Of a stretch of DNA of 64,000 bases, positions 7,383-32,195 are shown one piece after another. Made by a program: the position numbers and the translations under genes. Every line of letters starts with the position of its first letter. Positions within the stretch are counted from its first letter, which is position 1. The notes beneath the pieces are model-generated. The model did no database searches and was not told the DNA's origin. It worked only from the letters and a program-made list of their open reading frames with translations. Origin of the DNA: an uncultured Alphaproteobacteria bacterium (GTDB lineage Bacteria > Pseudomonadota > Alphaproteobacteria > Rs-D84); assembly GCA_947054455.1 (NCBI GenBank), contig CAMRWN010000002.1:19976-83975 (forward strand), written 5' to 3'.

Positions 7383-7952
7383 ATGGATAAAGAATTAATG
7401 AATTTGTTGGATAGGCCGATTGTTATGGTCGGACTTATGGGGGCAGGTAAAACCAGCATAGGTCGTGCGTTGGCGCGGCGGCTGGGGGTGTCGTTTGTTG
7501 ACTCTGACAAGGAGATAGAAGCGGCGGCCGGATGCAGCGTGGTTGATATTTTTGCTATGTACGGCGAGGCGGAATTTCGCCGTGTGGAACAGCGTGTTAT
7601 TTCGCGGCTGCTGGATGCGCCCCCGGCGCGCAAAGTTGTATCTACGGGCGAGGGGGCTTTTATAACCCCGGCGGTGCGTGAAATGGCTATGTCGCGCGCG
7701 TTGACAATCTGGTTAAAGGCTGACTTGGAACTGCTTGTTAAAAGAACGAATTTTAGAAACACGCGTCCTCAGCTGCTAAATGCAGATAGTCGTCAGATTC
7801 TGGCCCAGCTGATACGTGAACGCTATGATATTTATGCGATGGCGGACATCACTGTCGAGACGCGTGATGAAAGCCTGCGTAAAACATTGGACAAGGTTGT
7901 GGGTGCAATTAAAAGCTATATAAAAAAAGGAGAAGAAAATGGCGAAAAGTAA
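7383..7952 (+). CDS. aroK: Shikimate kinase
   Basis: Walker A motif GLMGAGKTSIGRALA and the typical AroK length and architecture. Confidence 0.85.
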   Translation: MDKELMNLLDRPIVMVGLMGAGKTSIGRALARRLGVSFVDSDKEIEAAAGCSVVDIFAMYGEAEFRRVEQRVISRLLDAPPARKVVSTGEGAFITPAVREMAMSRALTIWLKADLELLVKRTNFRNTRPQLLNADSRQILAQLIRERYDIYAMADITVETRDESLRKTLDKVVGAIKSYIKKGEENGEK

Positions 7953-8496
7953 TCTGTTTAAAGAATTCCGCAGTTTTATTGAGCGCGGCAGCGCAATTGA
8001 TATGGCGGTCGGTATCATTGTCGGCAGTGTGATGACCAGTGTTGTTAATTCGCTGGTAAAGGATATCATTATGCCGCCGATAGGGTTGCTGATTGGCGGG
8101 GTAGATTTCTCGCAGTTGTTTATTGTTCTGGCCGGCGGCAAGGGGCAGCATTTCCCTACTGTCGAAGCGGCCCAGGCGGCCGGCGCGACAACGATGAATA
8201 TCGGCGTCTTTATGAATTCCGTGGTCAGTTTCTTGATTACTATGTTCGCCATATTCCTGTTTGTTCGCACTGTTAATAAAATGCGTTCGAAAAAGCCTGC
8301 GACAACACGCGCGTGCCCTTATTGTACCAGCGCTATTAATATTGCGGCAACAAAATGCCCGTATTGTTGTTCGGCGGTTAAACCCGTTGCACAGGAGGCT
8401 GTCGATACAGACAGTGATTTAAAGAAATCTTTGAAAGATTTAACGAAAAAGGCGACAGGGCAGATTTCGAAAATAAAAAAGATTTCAAAGCGTTAA
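7939..8496 (+). CDS. mscL: Large-conductance mechanosensitive channel MscL with a C-terminal CxxC..CxxC extension
   Basis: MscL N-terminus (FKEFRSFIERGSAIDMAVGIIVG..IIMPPIG) followed by an extra ~60 aa containing CPYC-x10-CPYCC. Overlaps the aroK end by 14 nt. Confidence 0.85.
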   Translation: MAKSNLFKEFRSFIERGSAIDMAVGIIVGSVMTSVVNSLVKDIIMPPIGLLIGGVDFSQLFIVLAGGKGQHFPTVEAAQAAGATTMNIGVFMNSVVSFLITMFAIFLFVRTVNKMRSKKPATTRACPYCTSAINIAATKCPYCCSAVKPVAQEAVDTDSDLKKSLKDLTKKATGQISKIKKISKR

Positions 8497-8552: not shown

Positions 8553-8984
8553 AGTGGTGTGCAGGTGGGCGTGCGATATAGCCAGAAATCGGGCGCATTT
8601 GTATCGTATTTTTTTTTGTGTAAAGCGCGCAATAAAGGACGGGTATATATTCAGTATTTCCCGGATATTATTGTATTGTTTTTATAAAATAATTTATCAC
8701 TACGTTTGCGACGTTATGTATAGTTTTTTTGCGGGCGGGGGCTTGTTTAGATGATTTTATTGATGGGGTGTGAATGTGGTTTTTTGGGGTTTGGTTCGGG
8801 GTTAAATTGGTGCTGTAAATGATGTGTTGTGTAAATATTGGCTGGTTGGGTTGTTTTTGTTTGTTGTGGGGATGGGGGGGCTTTTTTTATACTTCTCGGG
8901 GCGGTGTTCCGGTTTGGGGTTGTGTGTTTGGATTTTTTTTGATGAAAAACTGGTGAAAAAATATCGTAAGGGTGGTATATCAAA

Positions 8985-9012
8985 AAGGCGCATAATTTAT
9001 ATTATGTATAGT
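8985..9012. other. dif-like XerC/D site (attL, host-type XerC arm)
   Basis: AAGGCGCATAA-TTTATA-TTATGTATAGT matches 21 of 28 positions of E. coli dif as I recall it (GGTGCGCATAATGTATATTATGTTAAAT). Confidence 0.8.
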
Positions 9013-9086
9013 TTACAAAGTGTGCCCTATCGGGTTAATATTTGATTTTACGATATAAATCGCAAAACCGACTTTATACAGATATA

Positions 9087-9221
9087 TTAAAGTCGTTTGT
9101 TAACTTTCCTATATCTAGTATCTTCTTTATACCATGCTCTTGCTCGAACACGAGAAAGAACGTACTCGAAAAACAAAGACAAAAACATAGCAAAAAAAAC
9201 AGAAAATAAAATCAACAACAT
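9087..9221 (-). CDS. 44-aa membrane peptide (N-terminal TM, basic tail), phage copy 1
   Basis: MLLILFSVFFAMFLSLFFEYVLSRVRARAWYKEDTRYRKVNKRL. The ATG directly follows the VP2 stop (GGAGGCAGTAAATG), with a GGAGG SD inside the VP2 end. Below the ORF-track cutoff. Confidence 0.6.
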   Translation of the reverse strand: MLLILFSVFFAMFLSLFFEYVLSRVRARAWYKEDTRYRKVNKRL

Positions 9222-10025
9222 TTACTGCCTCCATGCGCCAACAGCGGCAAGAGCCAATTCAGAAGGCGATATATAAAGCCTATCCAAATTCTGAATATCA
9301 CGACCAGTAGCACGCTTATAATCATCAGCTATCTTCATTCGTAACTGAGGACTTACAACATCACCATTAAGACCTATAGAACCATTCCTATAAGCATATT
9401 GCAAAGAAGACAAATAACCAGCATTATCAGAATCATTTTCTGTTACATCCTGATTAACCATCAATCGAGGGTCACCATTCAAGTCATATGCAATTCTAAA
9501 TAACTGAGAATCTGTACCAATAGGAGGCTGTTCGGTATTACCAGAAGGCATACCAGGCTGACGCATAATATTAAGTTCAGCCCTCATTGTATCGTTACGG
9601 ATACGCTTGGCCTCAAGGTCAAGATCCCTGCTCTCTTGCTCCTGACGATTAAAGATTTGCGAAATCCTATTAATAGCAGAAGATATCGCGCTACCTTTCT
9701 GATATCCAGCATCAGAATTGCCACCAGCACTCATGGTAGGACTAACATTTGAAGAAACACCCAAGGCGGCAAGAGGATTTATACCGGCCTTAAGGGCATC
9801 TCGAACTCGATACTGAGTCGCATTCTTCTGAAAGTCCATTTGCTCGTTAAATTGACGACGAGCCTCATGACGATTATGACGAGATTCTTTCTTACTAGAA
9901 GAAGAACCAAACAAACCACCAATTAAATCACCGACGGCACCAACACCGGCACCAATAAAAGAACCAAGTCCGGGGGAAATAGAAGTACCCAAAGTAGCAC
10001 CAGTTGCAGTTAGTTCACCTGCCAT
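9222..10025 (-). CDS. Microviridae minor capsid/DNA pilot protein (VP2/H-like), copy 1
   Basis: 267 aa with a Gly-rich N-terminus and QMDFQKNATQYRVRDALKAGINPLAALG, the conserved pilot-protein motif. Confidence 0.8.
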   Translation of the reverse strand: MAGELTATGATLGTSISPGLGSFIGAGVGAVGDLIGGLFGSSSSKKESRHNRHEARRQFNEQMDFQKNATQYRVRDALKAGINPLAALGVSSNVSPTMSAGGNSDAGYQKGSAISSAINRISQIFNRQEQESRDLDLEAKRIRNDTMRAELNIMRQPGMPSGNTEQPPIGTDSQLFRIAYDLNGDPRLMVNQDVTENDSDNAGYLSSLQYAYRNGSIGLNGDVVSPQLRMKIADDYKRATGRDIQNLDRLYISPSELALAAVGAWRQ

Positions 10026-10453
10026 TATTCACACCTTATTATTATTCCAGGGCGACGTGGTTTCTGTCCACCTTTTCCAGACTTTCCCTTAGCAAACAAC
10101 ACTTCACGACGCTCTCTACGCTGTACGCAAACTGGATGTTGCCTTGGTAAATCTACCTGAATTCTACCATACTGGCCAACAGAAATCAAGCCTATATTAT
10201 TTTGGTCCTGTACCGCCAAACGATTAGCGCGCTTTATATCCCGGCGGGACATATTAAGACGGCGCATCCTTTCGGATGGTACAGGGGGTACAAAGGGCCG
10301 TGTCGGTCGTATTTGTTCTCGACTAGACGGCCCTAATACAGACCGCAAGCCCCGTAGACGAGGGTCTACGAGAATGGACCTCGCCATTCGGGTTGCGGGA
10401 GTTGTTAATTTATCAACTCGATTTTGTCTTCTTATTCGTCTTCTCAAACTCAT
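10025..10453 (-). CDS. Arg-rich basic phage protein of unknown function, copy 1
   Basis: 142 aa starting MSLRRRIRRQNR. Its TAATG stop/start overlap with VP2 implies translational coupling. Confidence 0.6.
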   Translation of the reverse strand: MSLRRRIRRQNRVDKLTTPATRMARSILVDPRLRGLRSVLGPSSREQIRPTRPFVPPVPSERMRRLNMSRRDIKRANRLAVQDQNNIGLISVGQYGRIQVDLPRQHPVCVQRRERREVLFAKGKSGKGGQKPRRPGIIIRCE

Positions 10454-10492
10454 AACAAAATCCTGTCAATACGCACATACATAGACAAGCCA

Positions 10493-11023
10493 CTATGATG
10501 TATGTGCTCCGTCAGAAGCTTCTGGAGTATTGCTCGGCATGCCTGAGGGCTCTAAAGAGCCCGCAGGAACGGCCTCATCGGCCGATACTCCTGCTACAGG
10601 CATCAAAGGCTCTGCCGGCTTGCCGGCAGGCATTTTAGGCTCAGCAGCGGGGGATATCACTTCACCGAATTCATCTCGAACTTCGGTATTGTCCAACAGA
10701 CTATCATCATTCGGGTCCTCTTCGGGGTCATTCGTGAACATTTCGCCAAGAGCGAACTGCATCGAAGCACGGGAAGCAGACACCGCGGCGGCCAATCTAT
10801 CATAACGAGCGATACGCTCAGCAAGAGTTTCAGTCTTACGAATCCGGTCCACAAGCGGACCACGAACATGAACCTCATTACCATATTCATCCAGGTAAAT
10901 CTTGGCCTTTTCATTCCTAGACTTACTCAACGATTTTGACAAACGTTCAAATTCAGCATTTGCCAGGTCATGGCCAATATTACGAGCACGGGCCAAAATA
11001 AATGATTCTTTACTTATTTTCAT
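10493..11023 (-). CDS. Phage protein with acidic/Pro-rich C-terminus (candidate internal scaffolding protein), copy 1
   Basis: 176-aa ORF 11 nt downstream of the capsid gene. The scaffold call rests only on position and composition. Confidence 0.4.
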   Translation of the reverse strand: MKISKESFILARARNIGHDLANAEFERLSKSLSKSRNEKAKIYLDEYGNEVHVRGPLVDRIRKTETLAERIARYDRLAAAVSASRASMQFALGEMFTNDPEEDPNDDSLLDNTEVRDEFGEVISPAAEPKMPAGKPAEPLMPVAGVSADEAVPAGSLEPSGMPSNTPEASDGAHTS

Positions 11024-11034
11024 TTCATATTCCT

Positions 11035-12531
11035 TTATCTAAAACGAGGGTTACCATTCGGAGATACCATATTACGCTCGATAAACGTATTACGTATAGC
11101 CGCGGCCTCAACATGAGGCGAATTTTCCATATCATTAAAAATACGAGGTGATGGATTACACTCTAAAAAGTCAGAATTTAACTCAGGAGCAGTCGTAAAG
11201 ACTCGACCTTGATGATATACCAGGTTAGTACTTTTCATAGATCCAGACACGTCATTAAGAGAACTACGATACTCATCGTAACGGTTATAGTAACCCCAAC
11301 GCTGATTATCTTGCTCTTCATTACCAGTCGGGAACAAAATTCCTTTCTTCATTTCAGCCATACCAACATGGGCAAATTCCGGAGTATAAATATCCTCACG
11401 AACATCGAAAGCCCATTCCATAGGCTGAATATTAACATACAAGGGAGCCGGCCGGATACAAACCAAATGTATAACAGTCGATGGCTCTTCGAAGTATGTC
11501 TTATAAGAACATGAACCATAACCAGTAGCAGTTCCACCACGTTGTCCAACGTATGAACTGGTCCCGGGGGCTGTCTGCAAAACACCATTAACATCCATCA
11601 TAGAACGACCATGAGCCAAGGTTTCAGGTAACTGCAAACGACGGTCGGAATACTTAATACCTAAATATGCCAACCAATCACGAAACCTCGAACCATACAG
11701 ATTACGTTTTATCTTCCAGGCCTGTTGCGCCATCGCAAAATTAAAGTCAGAAGGCAATATGCCAGTCGATTGAGAAAGATCTGCAGTTAATCCTTCAATT
11801 ACACCAGAAGACTGAGCACTATATGAGGTTTGATTAGTAACATCACCACCAGGATTAACAAAAGAACCATTTGGTAAACCTGTAACTACTTTTAAAGAAC
11901 CTCTTGAAGTAGAAATCAAATTAGAATTACCAACAACAGGTGCAGAAGTTGCAAAAGGTATTACAACCTCATCACCAAGCTGTTCCTCGACCAAGGAAGT
12001 AGTAAAAATATCCTTGGGCCAATTCATATGCCACAACTGTGTATTAGTAACAGTATCAAGGCCAGAGGCAGTAGATACAGGCAATTTTTCCTGTATATTA
12101 GGATCTAATACATGCTCATTTATCCACATAGCATATAAACGGAACGGCAAAGCGTTACACTTAAGATTAGGAACACCAGTAGCAAAACCTAAATGGTCGG
12201 CCAAAGAACCAACAGGCCAACCGCCTTCAGCCGGGGCAAGTATATAAGGCGGAACCGGACGAGTATTACCGTCTTCACCACCTGTATAAAAATCCTCAGC
12301 ATCATCCCATAAAATACGGTCATAGCCTGATATAGCAAACGTATCAACACGCATCTGGGTCAATGATTGACGAGCCAGGGAAGCCATTTGAAAGCCACCA
12401 GCAACACCTCCTCGAACAGTAGTACCAGCTATACAATGCCTGGCCGCAGTAGGAACCAATTCGGCCATATTAAAGCTTGTAATACGAGTATTCGAACGAT
12501 TATGATTATATCTTTTTAATCGAACTACCAT
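11035..12531 (-). CDS. Microviridae major capsid protein (F/VP1), copy 1
   Basis: Motifs SFNMAELVP, LPFRLYAMWINEH, DIFTTS and GSRFRDWLAYLGIKYSDRRLQLPETL. Start set at ATG 12531 (GGAGAAAAAAAAGATG) rather than the ORF-track start at 12582. Confidence 0.95.
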   Translation of the reverse strand: MVVRLKRYNHNRSNTRITSFNMAELVPTAARHCIAGTTVRGGVAGGFQMASLARQSLTQMRVDTFAISGYDRILWDDAEDFYTGGEDGNTRPVPPYILAPAEGGWPVGSLADHLGFATGVPNLKCNALPFRLYAMWINEHVLDPNIQEKLPVSTASGLDTVTNTQLWHMNWPKDIFTTSLVEEQLGDEVVIPFATSAPVVGNSNLISTSRGSLKVVTGLPNGSFVNPGGDVTNQTSYSAQSSGVIEGLTADLSQSTGILPSDFNFAMAQQAWKIKRNLYGSRFRDWLAYLGIKYSDRRLQLPETLAHGRSMMDVNGVLQTAPGTSSYVGQRGGTATGYGSCSYKTYFEEPSTVIHLVCIRPAPLYVNIQPMEWAFDVREDIYTPEFAHVGMAEMKKGILFPTGNEEQDNQRWGYYNRYDEYRSSLNDVSGSMKSTNLVYHQGRVFTTAPELNSDFLECNPSPRIFNDMENSPHVEAAAIRNTFIERNMVSPNGNPRFR

Positions 12532-12615
12532 CTTTTTTTTCTCCAAAATTAAAAAACAATTGACGATAAACCATATAATCATATATGGTCATCTGCTTAT
12601 ATTCTCGATTTTTCA

Positions 12616-12702
12616 TCAATTAAAACCAAAAAAAGCACCAACGGCACCAACAATAGCACCAACAATTCCCCAGGCAAATTTTACCCATTTCATAGTATTC
12701 AT
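12616..12702 (-). CDS. 28-aa glycine-zipper hydrophobic peptide, copy 1
   Basis: MNTMKWVKFAWGIVGAIVGAVGAFFGFN. GGAGG lies 6 nt upstream and the ATG overlaps the Rep stop (TTATGA). Below the ORF-track cutoff. Confidence 0.6.
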   Translation of the reverse strand: MNTMKWVKFAWGIVGAIVGAVGAFFGFN

Positions 12703-13568
12703 AAATACCTCCTATGTCTTAATTTATCAGATTTTTTATCAAGTTTTTCGCGCTCTTGCCATTTCGGCCGAAGAATATCAGAAATTTCTTTCCAACTTAA
12801 CGGCACGCACGACACAGTTTCGCGAATCTTCTCTTTAACCAGAAAATCCTTGAACCTCTTCTGGTCGCTGAATTCTTGTTGTTCTTCCTCATTATATAAT
12901 TTCCAAATATTACGAAGCTTATCGCGAATATACCGAGGCAAACGAATCCATTTACCACCAATACGAACGCTAAACGGAGGATAAGCATAATTCAAAACAC
13001 GCTCACGAAATGACTCATCAGTAGCGAATTTCTCAAGTATATCATAAAGTAAACCATACCCTAAGGCAGGTTTCCTCGATGCCAAGAAAAATTCAGGTGT
13101 GCGACCGTCAAGACGAACATCACCTGATTTAGTCATTTTCTTTGTAACATAGCCAGATATATAATCACAACGACCATAAGTCATGTGGTCTATATCGACA
13201 TTACCAAAACGCCAAGCCTTACGTAATGCATCAAAGCAATCACTATCGGCAAAGACAGCAACATGATAATGTGCACGCTCTGTATCATCACCATATTCAC
13301 CAACTAAAAAAGTCCGGGGAGTATAGCCAAGAAAATATTCAAGACGTTTTTTGAACTTTTTAGCAGTTTCCTTGGACAAACAACCATCGGCCGGATAAAA
13401 CTCCGGGGAGTAAGTCAATCCAACGAAATAATTATAATTATGGTAACGCATTTCTATTTTAAGCCTATCGGCCCACTCTTTCTTCTTATTCTTCAAACAA
13501 CCTGGACACTTACCGCAAGAAGTGAAACCAAGTGAACTTGAATAATTTGGATTTGTACAATAAGCCAT
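12699..13568 (-). CDS. Microviridae replication initiator (HUH endonuclease, VP4/A-like), copy 1
   Basis: Motifs FVGLTYSP, HYHVAVF (HUH) and YISGYVTKK. The likely start is ATG 13568 (MAYCTNP). The ORF-track GTG start at 13691 lies inside the dif-like site. Confidence 0.9.
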   Translation of the reverse strand: MAYCTNPNYSSSLGFTSCGKCPGCLKNKKKEWADRLKIEMRYHNYNYFVGLTYSPEFYPADGCLSKETAKKFKKRLEYFLGYTPRTFLVGEYGDDTERAHYHVAVFADSDCFDALRKAWRFGNVDIDHMTYGRCDYISGYVTKKMTKSGDVRLDGRTPEFFLASRKPALGYGLLYDILEKFATDESFRERVLNYAYPPFSVRIGGKWIRLPRYIRDKLRNIWKLYNEEEQQEFSDQKRFKDFLVKEKIRETVSCVPLSWKEISDILRPKWQEREKLDKKSDKLRHRRYL

Positions 13569-13657
13569 TAATACGTACGCGCACGACGACGGTACAAGCG
13601 GCGTGCACCAGTACGCATACGCAAACGACGACGTAAACGATAACGACGAAATCTCAT
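13568..13657 (-). CDS. 29-aa Arg-rich DNA-binding protein (J/VP8-like), copy 1
   Basis: MRFRRYRLRRRLRMRTGARRLYRRRARTY has 15 Arg in 29 aa. An AGGAG lies upstream, and the stop overlaps the Rep ATG (TAATG). Below the ORF-track cutoff. Confidence 0.65.
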   Translation of the reverse strand: MRFRRYRLRRRLRMRTGARRLYRRRARTY

Positions 13658-13682
13658 GCCCTACTCCTATATATAGATGGAT

Positions 13683-13710: not shown

Positions 13711-13784
13711 TTACAAAGTGTGCCCTATCGGGTTAATATTTGATTTTACGATATAAATCGCAAAACCGACTTTATACAGATATA

Positions 13785-13919
13785 TTAAAGTCGTTTGTTA
13801 ACTTTCCTATATCTAGTATCTTCTTTATACCATGCTCTTGCTCGAACACGAGAAAGAACGTACTCGAAAAACAAAGACAAAAACATAGCAAAAAAAACAG
13901 AAAATAAAATCAACAACAT
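13785..13919 (-). CDS. 44-aa membrane peptide, phage copy 2
   Basis: Matches 9087-9221 at +4698 (the tracked flanking ORFs are identical). Confidence 0.6.
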   Translation of the reverse strand: MLLILFSVFFAMFLSLFFEYVLSRVRARAWYKEDTRYRKVNKRL

Positions 13920-14723
13920 TTACTGCCTCCATGCGCCAACAGCGGCAAGAGCCAATTCAGAAGGCGATATATAAAGCCTATCCAAATTCTGAATATCACG
14001 ACCAGTAGCACGCTTATAATCATCAGCTATCTTCATTCGTAACTGAGGACTTACAACATCACCATTAAGACCTATAGAACCATTCCTATAAGCATATTGC
14101 AAAGAAGACAAATAACCAGCATTATCAGAATCATTTTCTGTTACATCCTGATTAACCATCAATCGAGGGTCACCATTCAAGTCATATGCAATTCTAAATA
14201 ACTGAGAATCTGTACCAATAGGAGGCTGTTCGGTATTACCAGAAGGCATACCAGGCTGACGCATAATATTAAGTTCAGCCCTCATTGTATCGTTACGGAT
14301 ACGCTTGGCCTCAAGGTCAAGATCCCTGCTCTCTTGCTCCTGACGATTAAAGATTTGCGAAATCCTATTAATAGCAGAAGATATCGCGCTACCTTTCTGA
14401 TATCCAGCATCAGAATTGCCACCAGCACTCATGGTAGGACTAACATTTGAAGAAACACCCAAGGCGGCAAGAGGATTTATACCGGCCTTAAGGGCATCTC
14501 GAACTCGATACTGAGTCGCATTCTTCTGAAAGTCCATTTGCTCGTTAAATTGACGACGAGCCTCATGACGATTATGACGAGATTCTTTCTTACTAGAAGA
14601 AGAACCAAACAAACCACCAATTAAATCACCGACGGCACCAACACCGGCACCAATAAAAGAACCAAGTCCGGGGGAAATAGAAGTACCCAAAGTAGCACCA
14701 GTTGCAGTTAGTTCACCTGCCAT
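13920..14723 (-). CDS. Microviridae pilot protein (VP2/H-like), copy 2
   Basis: Translation identical to 9222-10025. Confidence 0.8.
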   Translation of the reverse strand: MAGELTATGATLGTSISPGLGSFIGAGVGAVGDLIGGLFGSSSSKKESRHNRHEARRQFNEQMDFQKNATQYRVRDALKAGINPLAALGVSSNVSPTMSAGGNSDAGYQKGSAISSAINRISQIFNRQEQESRDLDLEAKRIRNDTMRAELNIMRQPGMPSGNTEQPPIGTDSQLFRIAYDLNGDPRLMVNQDVTENDSDNAGYLSSLQYAYRNGSIGLNGDVVSPQLRMKIADDYKRATGRDIQNLDRLYISPSELALAAVGAWRQ

Positions 14724-15151
14724 TATTCACACCTTATTATTATTCCAGGGCGACGTGGTTTCTGTCCACCTTTTCCAGACTTTCCCTTAGCAAACAACAC
14801 TTCACGACGCTCTCTACGCTGTACGCAAACTGGATGTTGCCTTGGTAAATCTACCTGAATTCTACCATACTGGCCAACAGAAATCAAGCCTATATTATTT
14901 TGGTCCTGTACCGCCAAACGATTAGCGCGCTTTATATCCCGGCGGGACATATTAAGACGGCGCATCCTTTCGGATGGTACAGGGGGTACAAAGGGCCGTG
15001 TCGGTCGTATTTGTTCTCGACTAGACGGCCCTAATACAGACCGCAAGCCCCGTAGACGAGGGTCTACGAGAATGGACCTCGCCATTCGGGTTGCGGGAGT
15101 TGTTAATTTATCAACTCGATTTTGTCTTCTTATTCGTCTTCTCAAACTCAT
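14723..15151 (-). CDS. Arg-rich basic phage protein, copy 2
   Basis: Translation identical to 10025-10453. Confidence 0.6.
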   Translation of the reverse strand: MSLRRRIRRQNRVDKLTTPATRMARSILVDPRLRGLRSVLGPSSREQIRPTRPFVPPVPSERMRRLNMSRRDIKRANRLAVQDQNNIGLISVGQYGRIQVDLPRQHPVCVQRRERREVLFAKGKSGKGGQKPRRPGIIIRCE

Positions 15152-15190
15152 AACAAAATCCTGTCAATACGCACATACATAGACAAGCCA

Positions 15191-15721
15191 CTATGATGTA
15201 TGTGCTCCGTCAGAAGCTTCTGGAGTATTGCTCGGCATGCCTGAGGGCTCTAAAGAGCCCGCAGGAACGGCCTCATCGGCCGATACTCCTGCTACAGGCA
15301 TCAAAGGCTCTGCCGGCTTGCCGGCAGGCATTTTAGGCTCAGCAGCGGGGGATATCACTTCACCGAATTCATCTCGAACTTCGGTATTGTCCAACAGACT
15401 ATCATCATTCGGGTCCTCTTCGGGGTCATTCGTGAACATTTCGCCAAGAGCGAACTGCATCGAAGCACGGGAAGCAGACACCGCGGCGGCCAATCTATCA
15501 TAACGAGCGATACGCTCAGCAAGAGTTTCAGTCTTACGAATCCGGTCCACAAGCGGACCACGAACATGAACCTCATTACCATATTCATCCAGGTAAATCT
15601 TGGCCTTTTCATTCCTAGACTTACTCAACGATTTTGACAAACGTTCAAATTCAGCATTTGCCAGGTCATGGCCAATATTACGAGCACGGGCCAAAATAAA
15701 TGATTCTTTACTTATTTTCAT
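15191..15721 (-). CDS. Candidate internal scaffolding protein, copy 2
   Basis: Translation identical to 10493-11023. Confidence 0.4.
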   Translation of the reverse strand: MKISKESFILARARNIGHDLANAEFERLSKSLSKSRNEKAKIYLDEYGNEVHVRGPLVDRIRKTETLAERIARYDRLAAAVSASRASMQFALGEMFTNDPEEDPNDDSLLDNTEVRDEFGEVISPAAEPKMPAGKPAEPLMPVAGVSADEAVPAGSLEPSGMPSNTPEASDGAHTS

Positions 15722-15732
15722 TTCATATTCCT

Positions 15733-17229
15733 TTATCTAAAACGAGGGTTACCATTCGGAGATACCATATTACGCTCGATAAACGTATTACGTATAGCCG
15801 CGGCCTCAACATGAGGCGAATTTTCCATATCATTAAAAATACGAGGTGATGGATTACACTCTAAAAAGTCAGAATTTAACTCAGGAGCAGTCGTAAAGAC
15901 TCGACCTTGATGATATACCAGGTTAGTACTTTTCATAGATCCAGACACGTCATTAAGAGAACTACGATACTCATCGTAACGGTTATAGTAACCCCAACGC
16001 TGATTATCTTGCTCTTCATTACCAGTCGGGAACAAAATTCCTTTCTTCATTTCAGCCATACCAACATGGGCAAATTCCGGAGTATAAATATCCTCACGAA
16101 CATCGAAAGCCCATTCCATAGGCTGAATATTAACATACAAGGGAGCCGGCCGGATACAAACCAAATGTATAACAGTCGATGGCTCTTCGAAGTATGTCTT
16201 ATAAGAACATGAACCATAACCAGTAGCAGTTCCACCACGTTGTCCAACGTATGAACTGGTCCCGGGGGCTGTCTGCAAAACACCATTAACATCCATCATA
16301 GAACGACCATGAGCCAAGGTTTCAGGTAACTGCAAACGACGGTCGGAATACTTAATACCTAAATATGCCAACCAATCACGAAACCTCGAACCATACAGAT
16401 TACGTTTTATCTTCCAGGCCTGTTGCGCCATCGCAAAATTAAAGTCAGAAGGCAATATGCCAGTCGATTGAGAAAGATCTGCAGTTAATCCTTCAATTAC
16501 ACCAGAAGACTGAGCACTATATGAGGTTTGATTAGTAACATCACCACCAGGATTAACAAAAGAACCATTTGGTAAACCTGTAACTACTTTTAAAGAACCT
16601 CTTGAAGTAGAAATCAAATTAGAATTACCAACAACAGGTGCAGAAGTTGCAAAAGGTATTACAACCTCATCACCAAGCTGTTCCTCGACCAAGGAAGTAG
16701 TAAAAATATCCTTGGGCCAATTCATATGCCACAACTGTGTATTAGTAACAGTATCAAGGCCAGAGGCAGTAGATACAGGCAATTTTTCCTGTATATTAGG
16801 ATCTAATACATGCTCATTTATCCACATAGCATATAAACGGAACGGCAAAGCGTTACACTTAAGATTAGGAACACCAGTAGCAAAACCTAAATGGTCGGCC
16901 AAAGAACCAACAGGCCAACCGCCTTCAGCCGGGGCAAGTATATAAGGCGGAACCGGACGAGTATTACCGTCTTCACCACCTGTATAAAAATCCTCAGCAT
17001 CATCCCATAAAATACGGTCATAGCCTGATATAGCAAACGTATCAACACGCATCTGGGTCAATGATTGACGAGCCAGGGAAGCCATTTGAAAGCCACCAGC
17101 AACACCTCCTCGAACAGTAGTACCAGCTATACAATGCCTGGCCGCAGTAGGAACCAATTCGGCCATATTAAAGCTTGTAATACGAGTATTCGAACGATTA
17201 TGATTATATCTTTTTAATCGAACTACCAT
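15733..17229 (-). CDS. Microviridae major capsid protein (F/VP1), copy 2
   Basis: Translation identical to 11035-12531. Confidence 0.95.
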   Translation of the reverse strand: MVVRLKRYNHNRSNTRITSFNMAELVPTAARHCIAGTTVRGGVAGGFQMASLARQSLTQMRVDTFAISGYDRILWDDAEDFYTGGEDGNTRPVPPYILAPAEGGWPVGSLADHLGFATGVPNLKCNALPFRLYAMWINEHVLDPNIQEKLPVSTASGLDTVTNTQLWHMNWPKDIFTTSLVEEQLGDEVVIPFATSAPVVGNSNLISTSRGSLKVVTGLPNGSFVNPGGDVTNQTSYSAQSSGVIEGLTADLSQSTGILPSDFNFAMAQQAWKIKRNLYGSRFRDWLAYLGIKYSDRRLQLPETLAHGRSMMDVNGVLQTAPGTSSYVGQRGGTATGYGSCSYKTYFEEPSTVIHLVCIRPAPLYVNIQPMEWAFDVREDIYTPEFAHVGMAEMKKGILFPTGNEEQDNQRWGYYNRYDEYRSSLNDVSGSMKSTNLVYHQGRVFTTAPELNSDFLECNPSPRIFNDMENSPHVEAAAIRNTFIERNMVSPNGNPRFR

Positions 17230-17313
17230 CTTTTTTTTCTCCAAAATTAAAAAACAATTGACGATAAACCATATAATCATATATGGTCATCTGCTTATAT
17301 TCTCGATTTTTCA

Positions 17314-17400
17314 TCAATTAAAACCAAAAAAAGCACCAACGGCACCAACAATAGCACCAACAATTCCCCAGGCAAATTTTACCCATTTCATAGTATTCAT
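17314..17400 (-). CDS. 28-aa glycine-zipper hydrophobic peptide, copy 2
   Basis: Matches 12616-12702 at +4698. Confidence 0.6.
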   Translation of the reverse strand: MNTMKWVKFAWGIVGAIVGAVGAFFGFN

Positions 17401-18266
17401 AAATACCTCCTATGTCTTAATTTATCAGATTTTTTATCAAGTTTTTCGCGCTCTTGCCATTTCGGCCGAAGAATATCAGAAATTTCTTTCCAACTTAACG
17501 GCACGCACGACACAGTTTCGCGAATCTTCTCTTTAACCAGAAAATCCTTGAACCTCTTCTGGTCGCTGAATTCTTGTTGTTCTTCCTCATTATATAATTT
17601 CCAAATATTACGAAGCTTATCGCGAATATACCGAGGCAAACGAATCCATTTACCACCAATACGAACGCTAAACGGAGGATAAGCATAATTCAAAACACGC
17701 TCACGAAATGACTCATCAGTAGCGAATTTCTCAAGTATATCATAAAGTAAACCATACCCTAAGGCAGGTTTCCTCGATGCCAAGAAAAATTCAGGTGTGC
17801 GACCGTCAAGACGAACATCACCTGATTTAGTCATTTTCTTTGTAACATAGCCAGATATATAATCACAACGACCATAAGTCATGTGGTCTATATCGACATT
17901 ACCAAAACGCCAAGCCTTACGTAATGCATCAAAGCAATCACTATCGGCAAAGACAGCAACATGATAATGTGCACGCTCTGTATCATCACCATATTCACCA
18001 ACTAAAAAAGTCCGGGGAGTATAGCCAAGAAAATATTCAAGACGTTTTTTGAACTTTTTAGCAGTTTCCTTGGACAAACAACCATCGGCCGGATAAAACT
18101 CCGGGGAGTAAGTCAATCCAACGAAATAATTATAATTATGGTAACGCATTTCTATTTTAAGCCTATCGGCCCACTCTTTCTTCTTATTCTTCAAACAACC
18201 TGGACACTTACCGCAAGAAGTGAAACCAAGTGAACTTGAATAATTTGGATTTGTACAATAAGCCAT
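17397..18266 (-). CDS. Microviridae replication initiator (VP4/A-like), copy 2
   Basis: Translation identical to 12699-13568. Confidence 0.9.
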   Translation of the reverse strand: MAYCTNPNYSSSLGFTSCGKCPGCLKNKKKEWADRLKIEMRYHNYNYFVGLTYSPEFYPADGCLSKETAKKFKKRLEYFLGYTPRTFLVGEYGDDTERAHYHVAVFADSDCFDALRKAWRFGNVDIDHMTYGRCDYISGYVTKKMTKSGDVRLDGRTPEFFLASRKPALGYGLLYDILEKFATDESFRERVLNYAYPPFSVRIGGKWIRLPRYIRDKLRNIWKLYNEEEQQEFSDQKRFKDFLVKEKIRETVSCVPLSWKEISDILRPKWQEREKLDKKSDKLRHRRYL

Positions 18267-18355
18267 TAATACGTACGCGCACGACGACGGTACAAGCGGC
18301 GTGCACCAGTACGCATACGCAAACGACGACGTAAACGATAACGACGAAATCTCAT
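18266..18355 (-). CDS. 29-aa Arg-rich J/VP8-like protein, copy 2
   Basis: Matches 13568-13657 at +4698. Confidence 0.65.
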   Translation of the reverse strand: MRFRRYRLRRRLRMRTGARRLYRRRARTY

Positions 18356-18380
18356 GCCCTACTCCTATATATAGATGGAT

Positions 18381-18408
18381 AAGGCGCACTATTTATATTA
18401 TGTATAGT
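18381..18408. other. dif-like site (attR, phage-type XerC arm)
   Basis: Same 28-mer as 13683-13710. Identity to the phage ends at 18410, after which host flank begins (tgtgttctgg). Confidence 0.8.
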
Positions 18409-18978
18409 TTTGTGTTCTGGTGGGCGCGAAAATGGCTATTTGTGTATATTTGTATGACTTTAATAAATCGTGTGCGTGGGACTAATTGATTGCTATCTTT
18501 TTATGAGAGTTTATAACGATAAAATGTGTATAAAAATATCTGTTAGTTTTATTATGAAAAAAGTTAATAAATTATTTTTAATAATTAAAATAATTTGTTG
18601 AATATATGAATATAATTTAATTTATCTGTTCGTGTTAAACATACTCATGGTTTATGCTGTTTTTATTATATTTGATGCATATTTGGCATCTGTTATACGT
18701 TTTTGTGTTTTATCATGATTATTTTGTTGCGTGATTATGTGAAAATATGTGGATATCGTCTTGATTTTGGCGGATTTTAATGGATTTTTCGTAAAATAAG
18801 CCGTAAAAACCGTGAAAAACCGCAGAAATCCGGGATTTTTTGCGTTTTTTAATATGTTTTTTACAAATTTTGTGCTTAATTTACCTGATTTGCTGCGGTT
18901 TGCCCTATAAAATACTTGAATTTGATTGGTGCAACGGCTAAAATTTTAACTGTTTAAATTAAAATTTTACCATAGGCG

Positions 18979-21381
18979 ATGAAAATGGCAGACAACATCA
19001 AAAAAATTCACGAGCGCGAAGCAAAATGGCAGCAGCGCTGGGCCCAGTCGGGCGTGTTTACGCCAAAAAACGACGGCAGCAAGCCGAAATACTATAATTT
19101 GATAGAATTCCCCTTCCCCAGCGGTTCCGGATTGCATGTTGGTCATATGCTGCCGTATACGGGGATGGACGTGCTGGCTCGTTTTCGTCGTATGCAGGGT
19201 TATGATGTTCTGTTTCCAATCGGATACGATTCCATGGGCATTTCATCAGAAAAGTACGCCACCAAGATTGGCAAGCATCCCAGCGAGTCGGTCGCGGAAC
19301 TGATAAAGATTTTTGAACGCGACATATCAATTATGGGGCTGTCGTTCGACGAGAATTCAAAGTTGGCGACATCCGACCCGGATTTTATAAAGTGGACACA
19401 ATGGATGTTTATACAGTTTTTCAAGGCGGGACTGGCGTATAAATCCGAACTGCCGATGAACTGGTGTCCGAACTGCCGCACCAATCTTACAAACGAAGAA
19501 CTGGAAGATGGCAAATGCGAACGCTGCCATGGGCCGGTTGAAAAGAGGATGAAGCTGCAGTGGAATTTGGCGATTACCAAGTACGCCGACCGTCTGATTG
19601 ATGATTTGTCGCTGGTGGATTATCCGTCGCGCGTCAAAACCGAACAGATAAACTGGATTGGGCGTTCGCATGGCGCGGACATCGACTTTATGGTTGGTGA
19701 TGACAAGATGACGATTTATACGACGCGTCCGGACACGATATTTGGTGCGACATTCTGTGTTATCGCGCCCGAGCATGCGCTTGTTAAAAAATGGCTGGAT
19801 GAGGGGCGTATTGAAAATGCCGACCATGTGCGTGAATACATTGCGGCCGCGCGCGCCAAAACAGAAATAGAACGTACCGACGCAACCAAGGAAAAAACGG
19901 GTGTGGAACTGCGCGGGATTCGTGCGACAAACCCGTTCAGCGGTGCGCAGATTCCTGTTTTTGTGGCGGATTATGTATTGGCGGATTACGGATTTGGCGC
20001 GATTATGGCGGTGCCGGCGCATGACGGCCGCGACTGGGATTTTGCGAAAAAATTTGGTCTGGATATAATTCCGGTTTTGGCCGGCGGGCGCCCGGACCAG
20101 GTGTGGGAAGGCGACGGCACGCACATAAATTCAGGATTTCTGGACGGCATGGACAAGGCCGATGCAATAGATGCCGCGATAAAGTTTGGCGCACAGCACG
20201 GTTTCGCACGCGGCACCACGAAGTATAAGTTAAAAGATTGGGGGTTTTCGCGTCAGATGTACTGGGGCGAACCGATCCCGCTGGTCTATTGCGAAAAATG
20301 CGGATGGGTTCCGGTTCCTGACGACCAGCTGCCGCTGATGCAGCCGTATATGTCTGACTACAGACCGACGGATGACGGGGAAAGCCCGCTGGCACGTGCG
20401 ACGGAATGGGTAAATACAACCTGCCCCCATTGCGGCGGTGCGGCCCGTCGCGAGACGGATACAATGCCGCAGTGGGCCGGTTCTTCGTGGTATTTTATGC
20501 GCTATCTGGATTCTAAAAATGATAATGAATTCTGCAATCGCGCCCAGTTGGAAAAATGGATGCCTGTCGACCATTACAACGGCGGGATGGAACATACCAC
20601 GCGCCATCTGCTGTATTCACGTTTTTGGTACAAGGCACTGTACGATTTGGGGTATGTCCCCGGTGTTGAACCGTATGTCAAGCGCACCAGCAGCGGCCTG
20701 CTGATGGCGGCGGACGGTACAAAGATGTCAAAATCGCGCGGAAACACCGTCCCCAGTTCCGATGTTGTTGAACGCAGCGGCGCAGACGCATGCCGTCTGA
20801 CGATTTTGTATCTGGGGCCGTGGGAGCAAAATGTAAACTGGTCCGAGGACACGCTGCGCGGTGTTGAACGCTTTTTGCGCCGGATTGAGAACATGGCGGA
20901 CAATTTGACCGATGATGCGATGACGACCGAACAGGAACGTTTGGTGCATCAGTTGATTGCGGACATGACCGAGCGTATTGCGGAAATGCGTCTGAATACC
21001 GCGATTTCTGCGATGATGGAATATCTGAACGCGTTTTCGGGCAAAATGCCCCGCCCCGCATATGAAACATTGCTGCAGATGTTGAACCCGTTCGCGCCCC
21101 ATTTGACCGAAGAAATCTGGGAAAAATTGGGGCATTCGGAAATGCTGGTGTTTCATCCGTGGCCCGCGTATGACGCGTCCAAGCTTTCCCGTGCGGAAAT
21201 GACGATTGTTGCATCCGTAAACGGCAAGCGCGCAGCTGATTTCAGCATGCCGGTTGGCGCCGCAGAGGCTGATATTATCGCTGCGGCCCGCACGGCGGCA
21301 GCGGCCAAGTTGGCCGGGGCCGAGATAATTAAAACAATTGTCGTTCCCAATAAATTGGTGAACTTTGTGGTGAAAAAGTAA
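18979..21381 (+). CDS. leuS: Leucine--tRNA ligase
   Basis: 800 aa with HVGH (HIGH-type) and KMSKS motifs and a CP1 editing-domain-sized insertion. Confidence 0.93.
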   Translation: MKMADNIKKIHEREAKWQQRWAQSGVFTPKNDGSKPKYYNLIEFPFPSGSGLHVGHMLPYTGMDVLARFRRMQGYDVLFPIGYDSMGISSEKYATKIGKHPSESVAELIKIFERDISIMGLSFDENSKLATSDPDFIKWTQWMFIQFFKAGLAYKSELPMNWCPNCRTNLTNEELEDGKCERCHGPVEKRMKLQWNLAITKYADRLIDDLSLVDYPSRVKTEQINWIGRSHGADIDFMVGDDKMTIYTTRPDTIFGATFCVIAPEHALVKKWLDEGRIENADHVREYIAAARAKTEIERTDATKEKTGVELRGIRATNPFSGAQIPVFVADYVLADYGFGAIMAVPAHDGRDWDFAKKFGLDIIPVLAGGRPDQVWEGDGTHINSGFLDGMDKADAIDAAIKFGAQHGFARGTTKYKLKDWGFSRQMYWGEPIPLVYCEKCGWVPVPDDQLPLMQPYMSDYRPTDDGESPLARATEWVNTTCPHCGGAARRETDTMPQWAGSSWYFMRYLDSKNDNEFCNRAQLEKWMPVDHYNGGMEHTTRHLLYSRFWYKALYDLGYVPGVEPYVKRTSSGLLMAADGTKMSKSRGNTVPSSDVVERSGADACRLTILYLGPWEQNVNWSEDTLRGVERFLRRIENMADNLTDDAMTTEQERLVHQLIADMTERIAEMRLNTAISAMMEYLNAFSGKMPRPAYETLLQMLNPFAPHLTEEIWEKLGHSEMLVFHPWPAYDASKLSRAEMTIVASVNGKRAADFSMPVGAAEADIIAAARTAAAAKLAGAEIIKTIVVPNKLVNFVVKK

Positions 21382-32108: not shown

Positions 32109-32195
32109 GGGCATATGGCGGAATTGGTAGACGCGCTAGTTTCAGGTACTAGTGGTAGCAATACCTTGGAAGTTCGAGTCTTCTTATGCCCACCA
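32109..32195 (+). tRNA. tRNA-Leu (anticodon CAG)
   Basis: Acceptor gggcata/tatgccc, GGCGGAATTGGTAGAC D-arm, anticodon loop ttCAGgt, long variable arm, encoded CCA. Confidence 0.9.

Follow-up and report, generated by a model that had tools for sequence, protein, structure and literature searches.

The DNA analysed here, a stretch of 64,000 nucleotides that we call the window, very probably carries a head-to-tail dimer of a recombinase-less microvirus of 4698 nt, integrated at the dif site of a Ca. Enterousia / Rs-D84 bacterium by the host XerC and XerD proteins. Integrase-less phages that borrow XerCD are already known, and the described cases keep the XerC side of the site and sacrifice the XerD side. 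Judged by its bases, the attP of the window phage is the mirror image of the sites of these described Xer-exploiting elements.

Three 28-mers in the same orientation bound the array (Table 1). They lie exactly where a sequence-only reading of this DNA had placed them and are the sole window matches to the query AAGGCGCANNATTTATATTATGTATAGT at up to 3 mismatches; the same search gave 0 matches in 100 shuffles. A scan of the 64-kb window against the clade consensus, with up to 9 mismatches allowed, found no other dif-like site. The site-to-site distance is exactly 4698 bp for both intervals, and the two 4698-bp units differ at only 2 positions: bases 9-10 of the left arm are TA in one unit and CT in the other, which gives CATAA in the left site and CACTA in the middle and right sites. 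Compared with the E. coli dif reference (GGTGCGCATAATGTATATTATGTTAAAT, single-copy in 5134 of 5426 complete E. coli genomes), the left site matches at 21 of 28 positions, the figure given in the sequence-only reading; the phage-type site matches at 19 and the host-clade consensus at 22. The layout is that of a chromosomal dif, namely 28 bp divided 11-6-11, with arms of XerC and XerD type and an inner CATAA/TTATG dyad. The assignment of the two arms to XerC and XerD is a probable one, made by similarity to E. coli dif.

Table 1. Features of the integrated array and its flanks in the 64,000-nt window
Feature	Position	Strand	Remarks
mscL	7939..8496	+	Host gene left of site; conserved clade order
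Orphan XerD-arm-like sequence	8713..8724	+	GTTATGTATAGT; ~270 bp left of attL, orientation as attL
attL, host-type dif	8985..9012	+	AAGGCGCATAA-TTTATA-TTATGTATAGT (XerC-like arm, 6-bp spacer, XerD-like arm)
Prophage copy 1	9013..13682	-	Every phage gene on - strand, antisense to dif top strand
Non-coding motif	9024..9042	.	GCCCTATCGGGTTAATATT; adjoins attP; second copy 13722-13740
44-aa hydrophobic small ORF	9087..9221	-	Downstream of pilot gene; 36-52-aa ORFs there in relatives
DNA pilot protein (VP2/H-like), 267 aa	9222..10025	-	PHROG 11693, E = 1.6e-14
142-aa protein	10025..10453	-	No family match (Pfam, PHROGs); conserved in relatives
176-aa protein	10493..11023	-	No family match (Pfam, PHROGs)
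Major capsid protein VP1/F, 515-aa ORF	11035..12582	-	Pfam Phage_F PF02305, E = 2.6e-57; PHROG 514, E = 8.7e-91
Rep/VP4 rolling-circle initiator, 289 aa	12699..13568	-	ATG at 13568; REP_ORF2-G2P PF23343, E = 8.5e-14; PHROG 942, E = 4.3e-56
29-aa arginine-rich peptide	13568..13657	-	MRFRRYRLRRR...; first ORF downstream of attP; starts 26 nt from XerC-like arm
Middle site, phage attP	13683..13710	+	AAGGCGCACTA-TTTATA-TTATGTATAGT
Prophage copy 2	13711..18380	-	Identical base for base to copy 1; copy-1 features recur at +4698
attR	18381..18408	+	Phage XerC-like arm (CACTA), spacer and XerD-like arm, then host TTTGTGTTCTGGTGG
leuS	18979..21381	+	Host gene right of site; conserved clade order

The left site is of the type found throughout the host clade. 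Searching the whole collection for exact pattern matches recovered the left-site-type 28-mer in at least 119 stretches, each from another assembly or species and each with one match. Among the matches listed, nearly all are from metagenome-assembled genomes of gut Alphaproteobacteria or Ca. Enterousia (order Rs-D84), a clade with genomes smaller than 1 Mb. The XerC-like arm reads CATAA in all of the at least 119 matches listed and CACTA in none of them, bearing out the proposal that CATAA is the arm of the host. Among the loci listed, mscL is the left neighbour in 87 and leuS the right neighbour in 72, within a gene order conserved in the clade: hisS-prfA-aroK-mscL, the site, and leuS. The 28-mer is essentially invariant, against roughly 70-80% DNA identity for the best-matching flanking genes. 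The empty site that had been predicted for relatives is present as this same 28-mer between mscL and leuS; that of L040, AAGGCGCATAATGTATATTATGTATAGT-TTTGTGTTCTGGTGG, has the right flank of the window and is nearly as predicted, with the spacer TGTATA instead of TTTATA. The attL site, thought earlier to be a near-intact dif, is an intact copy of the site of the clade: it differs from the clade consensus at spacer position 2 only, and L071, L110 and L123 have this TTTATA variant as their only site. In the circular genome OZ007020.1 of the clade (958,618 bp), the site is near position 571,006. In 22 of 106 relatives an orphan sequence resembling the XerD arm, like that left of attL, lies at a distance of 226-560 bp to the left of dif.

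The expectation that the site would coincide with a switch in GC skew failed. No skew inversion occurs at the site in the window from -9 kb to +45 kb (window profile and four-fold degenerate sites per gene), or in the pool of 118 relatives over about +/-8 kb; in both, the + strand is G- and T-rich on either side. At four-fold degenerate sites G exceeds C and T exceeds A on this strand in genes of either orientation, and the pooled GC skew of the relatives is 0.25 (L+), 0.21 (L-), 0.29 (R+) and 0.19 (R-), with intergenic values of 0.20 and 0.18. The 45 kb to the right amount to about 5% of a genome smaller than 1 Mb. With no inversion of strand composition nearby, the site differs from a textbook dif in lying away from a skew switch, and over the stretches covered there is no skew shift point to mark it as the replication terminus. 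These results, together with a deeply conserved housekeeping gene order that is unusual for a terminus and extra XerD-arm-like half-sites around the site in many relatives, could be taken to mean that the 28-mer is not the chromosome dimer resolution site, but an Xer-like site with a different function, or a sequence recognized by some other tyrosine recombinase of the host. We consider this quite improbable in view of the 22/28 match and canonical architecture with its inner dyad, the single match per stretch in different assemblies among the matches listed, and the near invariance of the 28-mer beside diverged genes; in addition, sister phages described below have CTXphi-style hairpins that use the same XerC and XerD arms. 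The dif of B. subtilis is itself tens of kb away from the terminus, and distance by itself is thus no reason to reject the site. If the site is the dif of this clade, it would work tens of kb from any skew switch. No xerC, xerD or ftsK turned up in Pfam searches of the tested window ORFs, which included about 20 further ones of the host.

The repeat unit is a complete microvirus of 4698 bp encoding an F capsid, a rolling-circle Rep and a pilot protein, features which, with a genome in the range of ~4-6 kb, are those of the Microviridae (Petitvirales). The PF02305 match of VP1 spans the full profile of this F-type single-jelly-roll protein, and initiation at a later ATG would give a 498-aa form. 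A 330-aa GTG ORF for Rep, reaching into the att site, was rejected as an over-extension in favor of the 289-aa Rep preceded by the 29-aa arginine-rich ORF, whose RBS/ATG context is conserved in relatives. No integrase or recombinase was found on the phage by Pfam or PHROGs matches with all long ORFs and two small ORFs accounted for, in agreement with the sequence-only reading. The 142- and 176-aa proteins gave no match to Chlamy_scaf (PF09675) or Phage_ORF5 (PF20577); the scaffold and ORF5-type proteins and the close capsid relationship that characterize the Gokushovirinae and Enterogokushovirus were thus not found. A different prophage, at locus L140, has both of these families.

The best named capsid relatives are unclassified rodent and marmot microviruses, with 51-67% identity to the window phage (Microvirus mar6, bajarodmic 910, 786 and 626, and Dipodfec UOA04_Rod_962). 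Outside the small rodent/marmot/gut group, with capsid identities of 47% or more, the next-best phage records are just 33-36% identical. No relatives turned up in IMG/VR, scanned once with VP1 and once with a VP1 alignment, and one metagenome scan found one locus, L125. The window VP1 is identical to P0121 and P0001. All five free relatives have a single dif-like site placed as in the window phage, upstream of rep, which agrees with the proposal that the phage itself carries an attP. These sites match the window attP at 22-23 of 28 positions, compared with 16-17 of 28 for the next-best matches; in four of the five, the variation is in the XerC arm, and the spacer and XerD arm are kept. The match of their attP to the Ca. 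Enterousia / Rs-D84 dif would assign hosts to the "orphan" faecal microviruses mar6, bajarodmic and Dipodfec. We know of no phage of Ca. Enterousia / Rs-D84, which are uncultured gut bacteria with genomes smaller than 1 Mb. The non-coding motif GCCCTATCGGGTTAATATT is kept in the window phage, mar6, bajarodmic 786 and 626, and L136, at 57-77% capsid identity; one may speculate that it is a replication origin or packaging signal. A scan for promoters and terminators around attP gave 1 promoter-like match versus 2.7 expected.

The phage attP is situated in non-coding DNA directly ahead of the arginine-rich ORF and rep. It has the spacer and the entire XerD-like arm in common with the host site, and the XerC-like arms of the two are 2 bases apart. 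The window junctions fit a reciprocal exchange rightward of these two bases: as the sequence-only reading had proposed, attL has the host XerC arm, attR has the phage XerC arm, and the XerD arms are identical. Its placement of the crossover in the central region is more than the window by itself can give: the exchange lies anywhere right of position 10, and the relatives place it in the right half-spacer or the XerD arm. Homologous recombination by RecA over 18-30 bp of identity could in principle join the two DNAs without any site-specific event, as the 18 bases that follow the variant dinucleotide on its right, plus TT, are the same in attP and in the host site. This stretch is very short for RecA, and at least 6 phage lineages with differing att sequences target one 28-mer in a fixed orientation; moreover, the hairpin-type junctions of sister phages are explicable only by strand exchange at the XerC cleavage position. 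We therefore regard a RecA origin as extremely improbable. The host XerC and XerD are the likely catalysts, given the architecture of the site and the analogies with EC6098 and CTXphi. The element has the hallmarks of an IMEX: no recombinase of its own, a dif-like attP, and a location at the host dif with dif-like sites at both junctions.

A perfect dif persists at attL, which could therefore still serve the host and accept a second phage. A second integration, or integration of a dimeric replicative form, would produce the dimer with its arm order of host, phage and phage. This order, which is the prediction of either event, bears on whether the tandem is real or whether reads of a concatemeric or rolling-circle replicative form were threaded by the assembler into a genuine single-copy prophage. 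Such an artefact would account for two copies that are 100% identical save for the att dinucleotide, and a unit-length contig of the same phage does exist in another data set (4718 bp, with the same capsid). No homo-tandem was seen among about 15 other prophage loci, although most of these are short-read assemblies, which would collapse tandems. Against an artefact, besides the arm order, host DNA is joined cleanly at both outer junctions, and arrays of two different microviruses were assembled at the site in several independent samples, which shows that multiple occupancy of the site is real. We judge an assembly artefact very unlikely. In a true dimer the phage genome is uninterrupted in every circular permutation, making unit-length attP circles possible. 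Such circles could be released when Xer recombines any pair of the three sites, or alternatively by Rep-driven rolling-circle replication from the origin of one copy to that of the next, as in CTXphi arrays. Tandem CTXphi prophages are the template for rolling-circle production of new genomes. With its imperfect XerC arm, attR would not be a second perfect dif, which may slow Xer-driven excision.

At least five other lineages of the capsid family of the window phage are integrated at this same dif site. The prophages of L121, L125, L126-132 (phage A), L143/144, L146 and L147-149 represent integrations independent of that in the window, and all have its orientation, the dif being intact at the left junction and the XerC arm variant at the right one; in L136 only the left junction is visible. 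The reversed conservation, in which the XerD arm is kept and the XerC arm varied, holds for all complete prophage junction pairs of the window type. The left half of the phage spacer differs from that of the host in L121, in the L125/L126A/L143 group and in L147, and here the attR spacer is ATAATA (L121 and the L125 group) or ATGATA (L147), while attL has TGTATA. As attL thus has the host spacer and attR the left half-spacer of the phage, the exchange that fixes the junction appears to take place on the XerD side. All three window sites have one spacer, and for the window this side is deduced from the relatives, that is, from 3 lineages. We propose that XerD would cleave the bottom strand first and that the Holliday junction would then be completed by XerC or by replication, a route different from the XerC-only one of CTXphi and VGJphi. 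A complete two-step reaction with random segregation of a heteroduplex spacer yields an identical pattern 1 time in 8.

The classical FtsK-independent route, used by CTXphi and VGJphi, offers another explanation: XerC would exchange first, replication would resolve the junction, and the variant XerC arm would merely be tolerated. XerC arms are naturally variable, and the plasmid sites cer and psi depart from dif at the same inner positions. The spacers of the window attP and dif are identical and so compatible with an XerC-side exchange. This route is also established for most Xer-exploiting elements (PMC9226527). It nevertheless predicts the opposite of the host spacer observed at attL and the phage spacer at attR; the spacers of L121, the L125/L126A/L143 group and L147 differ just where the strand exchanged by XerC must pair, and the conserved part of attP is the XerD side. 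We thus find an XerC-first route unlikely for the window type. Should XerD act first here outside the control of cell division, the phage would have to make use of FtsK, or else to encode or recruit an activator of XerD, perhaps one of its small proteins without family assignment.

Among described elements, the enterogokushovirus prophages typified by EC6098 (Kirchberger & Ochman 2020, PMC7062461) are similar to the window phage in being integrase-less microviruses of ~4.3-4.7 kb at the host dif, with a 28-bp dif motif of bacterial type at one end and of phage type at the other. Experiments in E. coli established that EC6098 needs XerC, XerD and the two arms of its own motif in order to integrate (PMC7062461). 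In the Escherichia phages conservation covers the first 15 nt of the motif (the XerC arm), and the variability lies in the spacer and XerD arm (PMC7062461). Against this published description of their layout, the window phage keeps the spacer and XerD arm and varies in the XerC arm, which puts the intact dif on the other side of the prophage than in Escherichia. The analogy with gokushovirus prophages drawn in the sequence-only reading thus stands in principle, but not for the part of the site that varies. The window phage differs further in its capsid lineage, in having no detected Chlamy_scaf or Phage_ORF5 domains, and in its host, an uncultured alphaproteobacterium with a genome smaller than 1 Mb. 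The word "tandem" is absent from the main text of PMC7062461.

The BMV1-7 proviruses (Alpavirinae) were the first integrase-less microvirus proviruses found to have dif-like direct repeats as flanks (Krupovic & Forterre 2011, PMC3091885), and some of those in Bacteroidetes have an additional inverted dif-like sequence reminiscent of CTXphi (PMC3091885). They differ from the window phage in host phylum and capsid lineage, in the ~6.1-6.7 kb length of complete proviruses and in an att repeat of 13 bp; skew analysis was not possible there (PMC3091885). The gonococcal genetic island (GGI) and EludIMEX-1 (PMC5357621) likewise lie between an intact dif and a degenerate dif-like site and persist in the face of Xer activity, and integration of the GGI is thought to be XerD-first and FtsK-activated (PMC5357621). 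These elements are large islands rather than phages, and, unlike that of the window phage, their degenerate site has its divergence in the XerD arm, with the XerC arm and central region retained.

CTXphi-type ssDNA phages and satellites resemble the window phage in lacking an integrase and using XerCD at dif, and they form arrays by successive integration with a functional dif being regenerated. Their homology is on the XerC side and their divergence on the XerD side, with the new dif at the right of the element (PMC9226527; PMC5357621); the window phage reverses this pattern, with XerD-side homology and dif on the left. The attP of CTXphi is a folded hairpin of two half-sites, whereas that of the window phage is a plain duplex. 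Folding of the window attP region gave no hairpin and was no stronger than that of shuffled sequence (z = -0.6 and -1.7), which makes duplex attP the likely substrate; integration as a CTXphi-like folded single strand was rejected, there being no second site and no significant fold.

Hairpin attP sites and junctions of the CTXphi type do occur in sister phages at the same site (L133, L137, L140 and phage B of L126). The folds of L133, L135 and L140 are strong relative to shuffled sequence (z = -6.4 to -7.0), the hairpins are built from the same XerC and XerD arms, and these phages insert on the other side of dif than the window phage. We tentatively suggest that one gut microvirus family may hijack XerCD at dif in two mirror-image ways. 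One would be the CTXphi-like hairpin mode, acting on the XerC side and regenerating dif on the right; the other would be an undescribed duplex mode, in which the XerD arm and right half-spacer are kept, XerD exchanges the bottom strand, and dif is left intact on the left. A lineage with such a reversed mode would be a natural test of the order of Xer strand exchange and of how FtsK control is subverted, especially with close relatives whose CTXphi-like hairpin acts on this very dif. This dif is also a hot spot able to hold two different microviruses simultaneously. L126, with phage B, and L127, without it, provide a natural plus/minus comparison at one site: at the left junction, arm position 1 is still the T of the host, and the A of phage B is found in the regenerated dif.

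The window carries a real, well-bounded tandem microvirus prophage at a host dif-type site. As the sequence-only reading had described, three dif-like 28-mers (an 11-bp XerC-like arm, a 6-bp spacer and an 11-bp XerD-like arm) bound the array. A search with AAGGCGCANNATTTATATTATGTATAGT, allowing up to 3 mismatches, gave 3 matches in the window, at 8985 (attL), 13683 (middle site) and 18381 (attR), all on the + strand, and none in 100 shuffles; a scan of the 64 kb with up to 9 mismatches to the clade consensus found no further dif-like site. Neighbouring sites are exactly 4698 bp apart, and the two 4698-bp units differ only in the dinucleotide (TA or CT) at left-arm positions 9-10. The E. coli dif reference 28-mer used for comparison, GGTGCGCATAATGTATATTATGTTAAAT, is single copy in 5134 of 5426 complete E. 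coli genomes; of its 28 positions the left site shares 21, the figure given in the earlier reading, and the phage-type site 19.

The genes of the repeat unit all lie on the - strand (Table). None of its ORFs, all of which were covered, encodes a recombinase, in agreement with the earlier statement that an integrase is absent. A 330-aa ORF with a GTG start, which seemingly reached into the att site, was rejected as an over-extension in favor of the 289-aa Rep. Among deposited genomes, the closest are those of circular microviruses from faeces, 4.6-4.9 kb in size, with capsids 57-67% (Microvirus mar6 and bajarodmic viruses 910, 786 and 626) or 51% (Dipodfec UOA04_Rod_962) identical to that of the window phage. 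In a large protein collection this capsid family has 177 members, one of which, on a 4718-bp contig, is a 100% match to the window capsid.

Table. Genes of the repeat unit (window coordinates) and attachment sites of the window phage and its relatives. L-numbers are loci of relatives; phage A is the mirror-type microvirus of the L126 group.
Feature	Position	Strand	Details
Arg-rich peptide, 29 aa	13568-13657	-	first gene after att site in phage order
Rolling-circle Rep, 289 aa	12699-13568	-	PF23343, PHROG 942
F-type major capsid protein	11035-12582	-	PF02305, E = 2.6e-57
Two proteins, 176 and 142 aa	between capsid and pilot genes	-	without family match
Pilot protein	9222-10025	-	PHROG 11693
Hydrophobic ORF, 44 aa	9087-9221	-	last in phage order
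attP, window phage			AAGGCGCACTA-TTTATA-TTATGTATAGT
attP, mar6			GAAGCGCAGAA-TGTATA-TTATGTATAGT
attP, bajarodmic 910			TTGGCGGATAA-TGTATA-TTATGTATAGT
attP, bajarodmic 786/626			GGGGCGTATAA-TGTATA-TTATGTATAGT
attP, Dipodfec			AAGGCGCATAA-TGTATA-TTATGTATTGA
Prophage, L121			attL intact dif; attR AGGCGGATAAG-ATAATA-TTATGTATAGT
Prophage, L125, phage A of L126-132, L143/144			attL intact dif; attR CAACGCATAAC-ATAATA-TTATGTATAGT
Prophage, L146			attL intact dif; attR TAGGCTCATAA-TGTATA-TTATGTATAGT
Prophage, L147-149			attL intact dif; attR CAACGCATAAG-ATGATA-TTATGTATAGT
Prophage, L136			left junction only; attR outside contig, which ends within prophage

The left flank of the array contains hisS, prfA, aroK and mscL and the right flank leuS, with lpxB, ruvB, argS, tig and rpsA more distal. 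We scanned all GTDB species genomes for GCGCANNATNTATATTATGTATAG and obtained at least 119 stretches, all from different assemblies and with one match each. Those listed are nearly all gut Alphaproteobacteria MAGs, many of them named Candidatus Enterousia, a clade that corresponds to GTDB order Rs-D84 and has genomes mostly smaller than 1 Mb (PMC12306168). Among the matches listed the clade site reads AAGGCGCATAAT[G/A/T]TATATTATGTATAGT, and the arm is CATAA in 119 of 119 and CACTA in none, as expected if the left site of the window is of host type. The window spacer, TTTATA, is that of the sole site in three relatives (L071, L110 and L123). Of the 119 listed loci, 87 have mscL on the left and 72 have leuS on the right, without exception oriented as in the window, and the right flank of one (L040) is the window's own, TTTGTGTTCTGGTGG. 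The earlier reading had named empty sites lacking the 28-mer as a refuting result; the empty sites of relatives contain it. Flanking genes, even the best-matching ones, are about 70-80% identical in DNA to those of the window, against near invariance of the 28-mer, which is therefore under strong constraint. In the circular genome OZ007020.1 (958,618 bp) the site is at about 571 kb. These results confirm the observation and support its interpretation as integration at dif.

For a housekeeping region, the share of window proteins that resist annotation is high. Three large ORFs lack a Pfam match at E <= 1e-5 (28275-30920, -, 881 aa; 32341-34527, +, 728 aa; 42424-44649, +, 741 aa), as do five of about 300 aa at E <= 1e-4 (25189-26196, 39562-40461, 40474-41415, 52472-53323 and 59239-60192). 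Five tRNA genes (Rfam) lie at 32109-35764 and 45468-45541, three of them within 32.1-34.6 kb, and have no evident link to the prophage.

The expectation that a GC-skew extremum would coincide with the locus found no support in the DNA covered, as neither the window nor 118 relatives show a skew switch at the site. At four-fold degenerate sites of the window, the + strand has T>A on both sides of dif and G>=C to its right, in both gene orientations. Four-fold GC skew pooled over the 118 listed relatives is 0.25 (+ genes) and 0.21 (- genes) to the left and 0.29 and 0.19 to the right, intergenic skew in the same pool is 0.20 and 0.18, and the sign changes in no 1-kb bin from -8 to +8 kb around dif. 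The + strand is thus leading-like throughout, so that any terminus would lie more than 45 kb rightward in the window, about 5% of a genome of <1 Mb. Gene orientation (7 of 9 genes on + to the left of dif, 22 of 38 on - to the right) weakly suggests convergence. The dif of B. subtilis is tens of kb away from the terminus, and the lack of a skew switch therefore does not disqualify the site as dif. The strand asymmetry (G>C and T>A on the + strand) is independent of gene orientation and peaks within 1 kb of dif on both sides, where the adjoining intergenic DNA is strikingly G/T-rich on the + strand, both in the window and in host dif loci L006-L124.

The five free relatives have a single dif-like site apiece, which shares 22-23 of 28 positions with the window attP (next-best, 16-17 of 28). 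It falls in the corresponding non-coding stretch, with the conserved RBS/ATG of the Arg-rich ORF and rep a few bases downstream. These phages were picked by capsid similarity and not by site; the conservation of spacer and XerD arm is therefore not an ascertainment effect. Related phages with about 53-77% capsid identity are integrated between mscL and leuS at dif, oriented as in the window. attL keeps the host XerC arm and attR the phage arm in the window, as had been proposed, and in all complete prophages: the left junction is host dif and the right one a variant XerC arm with a perfect XerD arm. Three attR sites have a 7-nt spacer when the XerC arm is aligned on ATAA. The closest integrated relative (L136, 77% capsid identity) has AAGGCGTATAA rather than AAGGCGCATAA in its attL (3662-3689); the host XerC arm therefore varies too, where some phage arms vary. 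Adjoining attP, at 9024-9042 and 13722-13740, is the non-coding motif GCCCTATCGGGTTAATATT (also given as GCCCTAYCGGGTTAATAT), kept among phages of this mirror type with only 57-77% capsid identity to the window phage. Its ATATTAA core is reminiscent of the phiX174 origin, and we speculate that it is a candidate origin or Rep nick site.

The junctions are of the kind produced when a duplex attP and dif undergo reciprocal site-specific exchange. Host XerCD very probably catalyzes integration, given the canonical Xer layout, the lack of a phage recombinase and the precedent of an integrase-less E. coli microvirus, whose dependence on XerC and XerD was demonstrated experimentally (PMC7062461). The order of strand exchange is less certain. 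XerC cuts the top strand at the border of XerC arm and spacer, and XerD the bottom strand at the border of spacer and XerD arm (PMC9226527). In the three lineages with a non-host spacer, attL has the host TGTATA and attR the phage left half-spacer, which places the exchange point either in the XerD arm or in the half of the spacer next to it; the window, with identical spacers at its sites, is uninformative. The route of CTXphi and VGJphi, XerC-only exchange followed by resolution through replication, is contradicted in these lineages, since it predicts the phage spacer at attL, where the host spacer is found, and needs pairing of left half-spacers, which differ. A full two-step reaction with chance segregation of the heteroduplex spacer would yield the pattern one time in eight. 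XerD-side exchange is consistent with the data.

Since attL is still a perfect dif, it would stay usable by the host and by a second integration, and such an integration, or that of a dimeric replicative form, would produce exactly the observed arm order of host, phage, phage. No mirror-type attP is identical to dif, each having one or more deviating bases, and attR therefore never becomes a second perfect dif; this would plausibly limit Xer-driven excision, which is continuous in EC6098 (PMC7062461). Because one phage genome of the dimer runs without interruption through the middle site, Rep could make unit-length attP circles by rolling-circle replication from origin to origin. CTXphi arrays yield unit-length genomes in this way, from the origin of one copy to that of the next. 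Both attP and dif would also be restored if Xer recombined any two of the three sites.

Microvirus prophages at dif have been described in Bacteroidetes (PMC3091885) and Enterobacteriaceae, with no gokushovirus prophages found outside enterobacteria (PMC7062461); later work reported microvirus prophages in several more groups, including other Alphaproteobacteria. Our literature search found no published link between microviruses and Enterousia. What is new here is the host and the att-site variant, the strategy itself being known. Compared by their published descriptions, all described Xer-exploiting elements differ from this att architecture. In CTXphi, VGJphi, TLCphi, GGI and EludIMEX-1 the XerC side is conserved and the divergence falls on the XerD side, the reverse of the window phage, and Vibrio cholerae arrays form a new dif to the right of each element, whereas the window type leaves an intact dif to the left (PMC9226527, PMC5357621). 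Enterogokushovirus motifs, with the first 15 nt conserved and spacer and XerD arm variable (PMC7062461), are its mirror image.

The opposite arrangement occurs at the same dif in three close relatives with 68-69% capsid identity (L133-135, L137-138 and L140-142), in a larger microvirus with a 607-aa capsid (L126, L128-130) and in a gokushovirus-like phage with Chlamy_scaf and Phage_ORF5 domains (L140). In this hairpin type the left junction comprises the host XerC arm, about 11 nt, TTATGTTGAGC, a 2-9-nt loop, GCTGAACATAA, 6 nt and an inverted XerC arm (TTATGCGCCTT), and at the right junction a phage XerC arm with host spacer and XerD arm regenerates dif. The hairpins lie at L133:8748-8801, L137/L140:8741-8806, L140:13456-13525 and about 3640-3700 of L126 (host orientation). 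Their fold z-scores are -6.4 to -7.0, against -0.6 and -1.7 (no fold) for the window attP region, and the junctions are what would be expected if XerC cut a single strand folded into a hairpin, as it does in CTXphi. Relative to rep, the inner hairpin half has the position and orientation of the mirror-type attP, and the two site types therefore look homologous. Relative to the dif top strand, genes of the three close relatives are sense and those of the gokushovirus-like phage antisense. Arrays of two distinct microviruses occupy dif in L126, L128-130 and L140-141. In L126 a perfect dif separates the 607-aa-capsid phage (left) from a mirror-type phage (right); L127, the same site without the left phage, shows that host arm base T is kept at the left junction. 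In L140 the gokushovirus-like phage stands in series with another phage of the hairpin type.

Partial dif sequences also flank the site. An orphan XerD arm, (G)ATTATGTATAGT, without XerC arm or spacer, lies between mscL and dif in the window (8713-8724), at about 8490 in L133 and 3928 in L136, and, in direct orientation 226-560 bp left of dif, in 22 of 106 listed relatives; among these it never occurs on the opposite strand between mscL and dif. An inverted right half of dif, ACTATACATAATAT, following a small GC hairpin, is absent from window 18409-18608 and present in 59 of 117 listed relatives, in host DNA 16-40 bp right of the XerD arm (e.g., L034, L050, L055 and L078, and the right flank of L121). 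The unit bearing it, 44-70 bp long and often in 2-4 tandem repeats, lies within 200 bp right of dif in loci L006-L124. Within 200 bp of dif, the listed relatives together have more than 100 copies of ACATAAT on the right and 4 on the left. The inverted units are possibly accessory XerD sites, scars or miniature elements.
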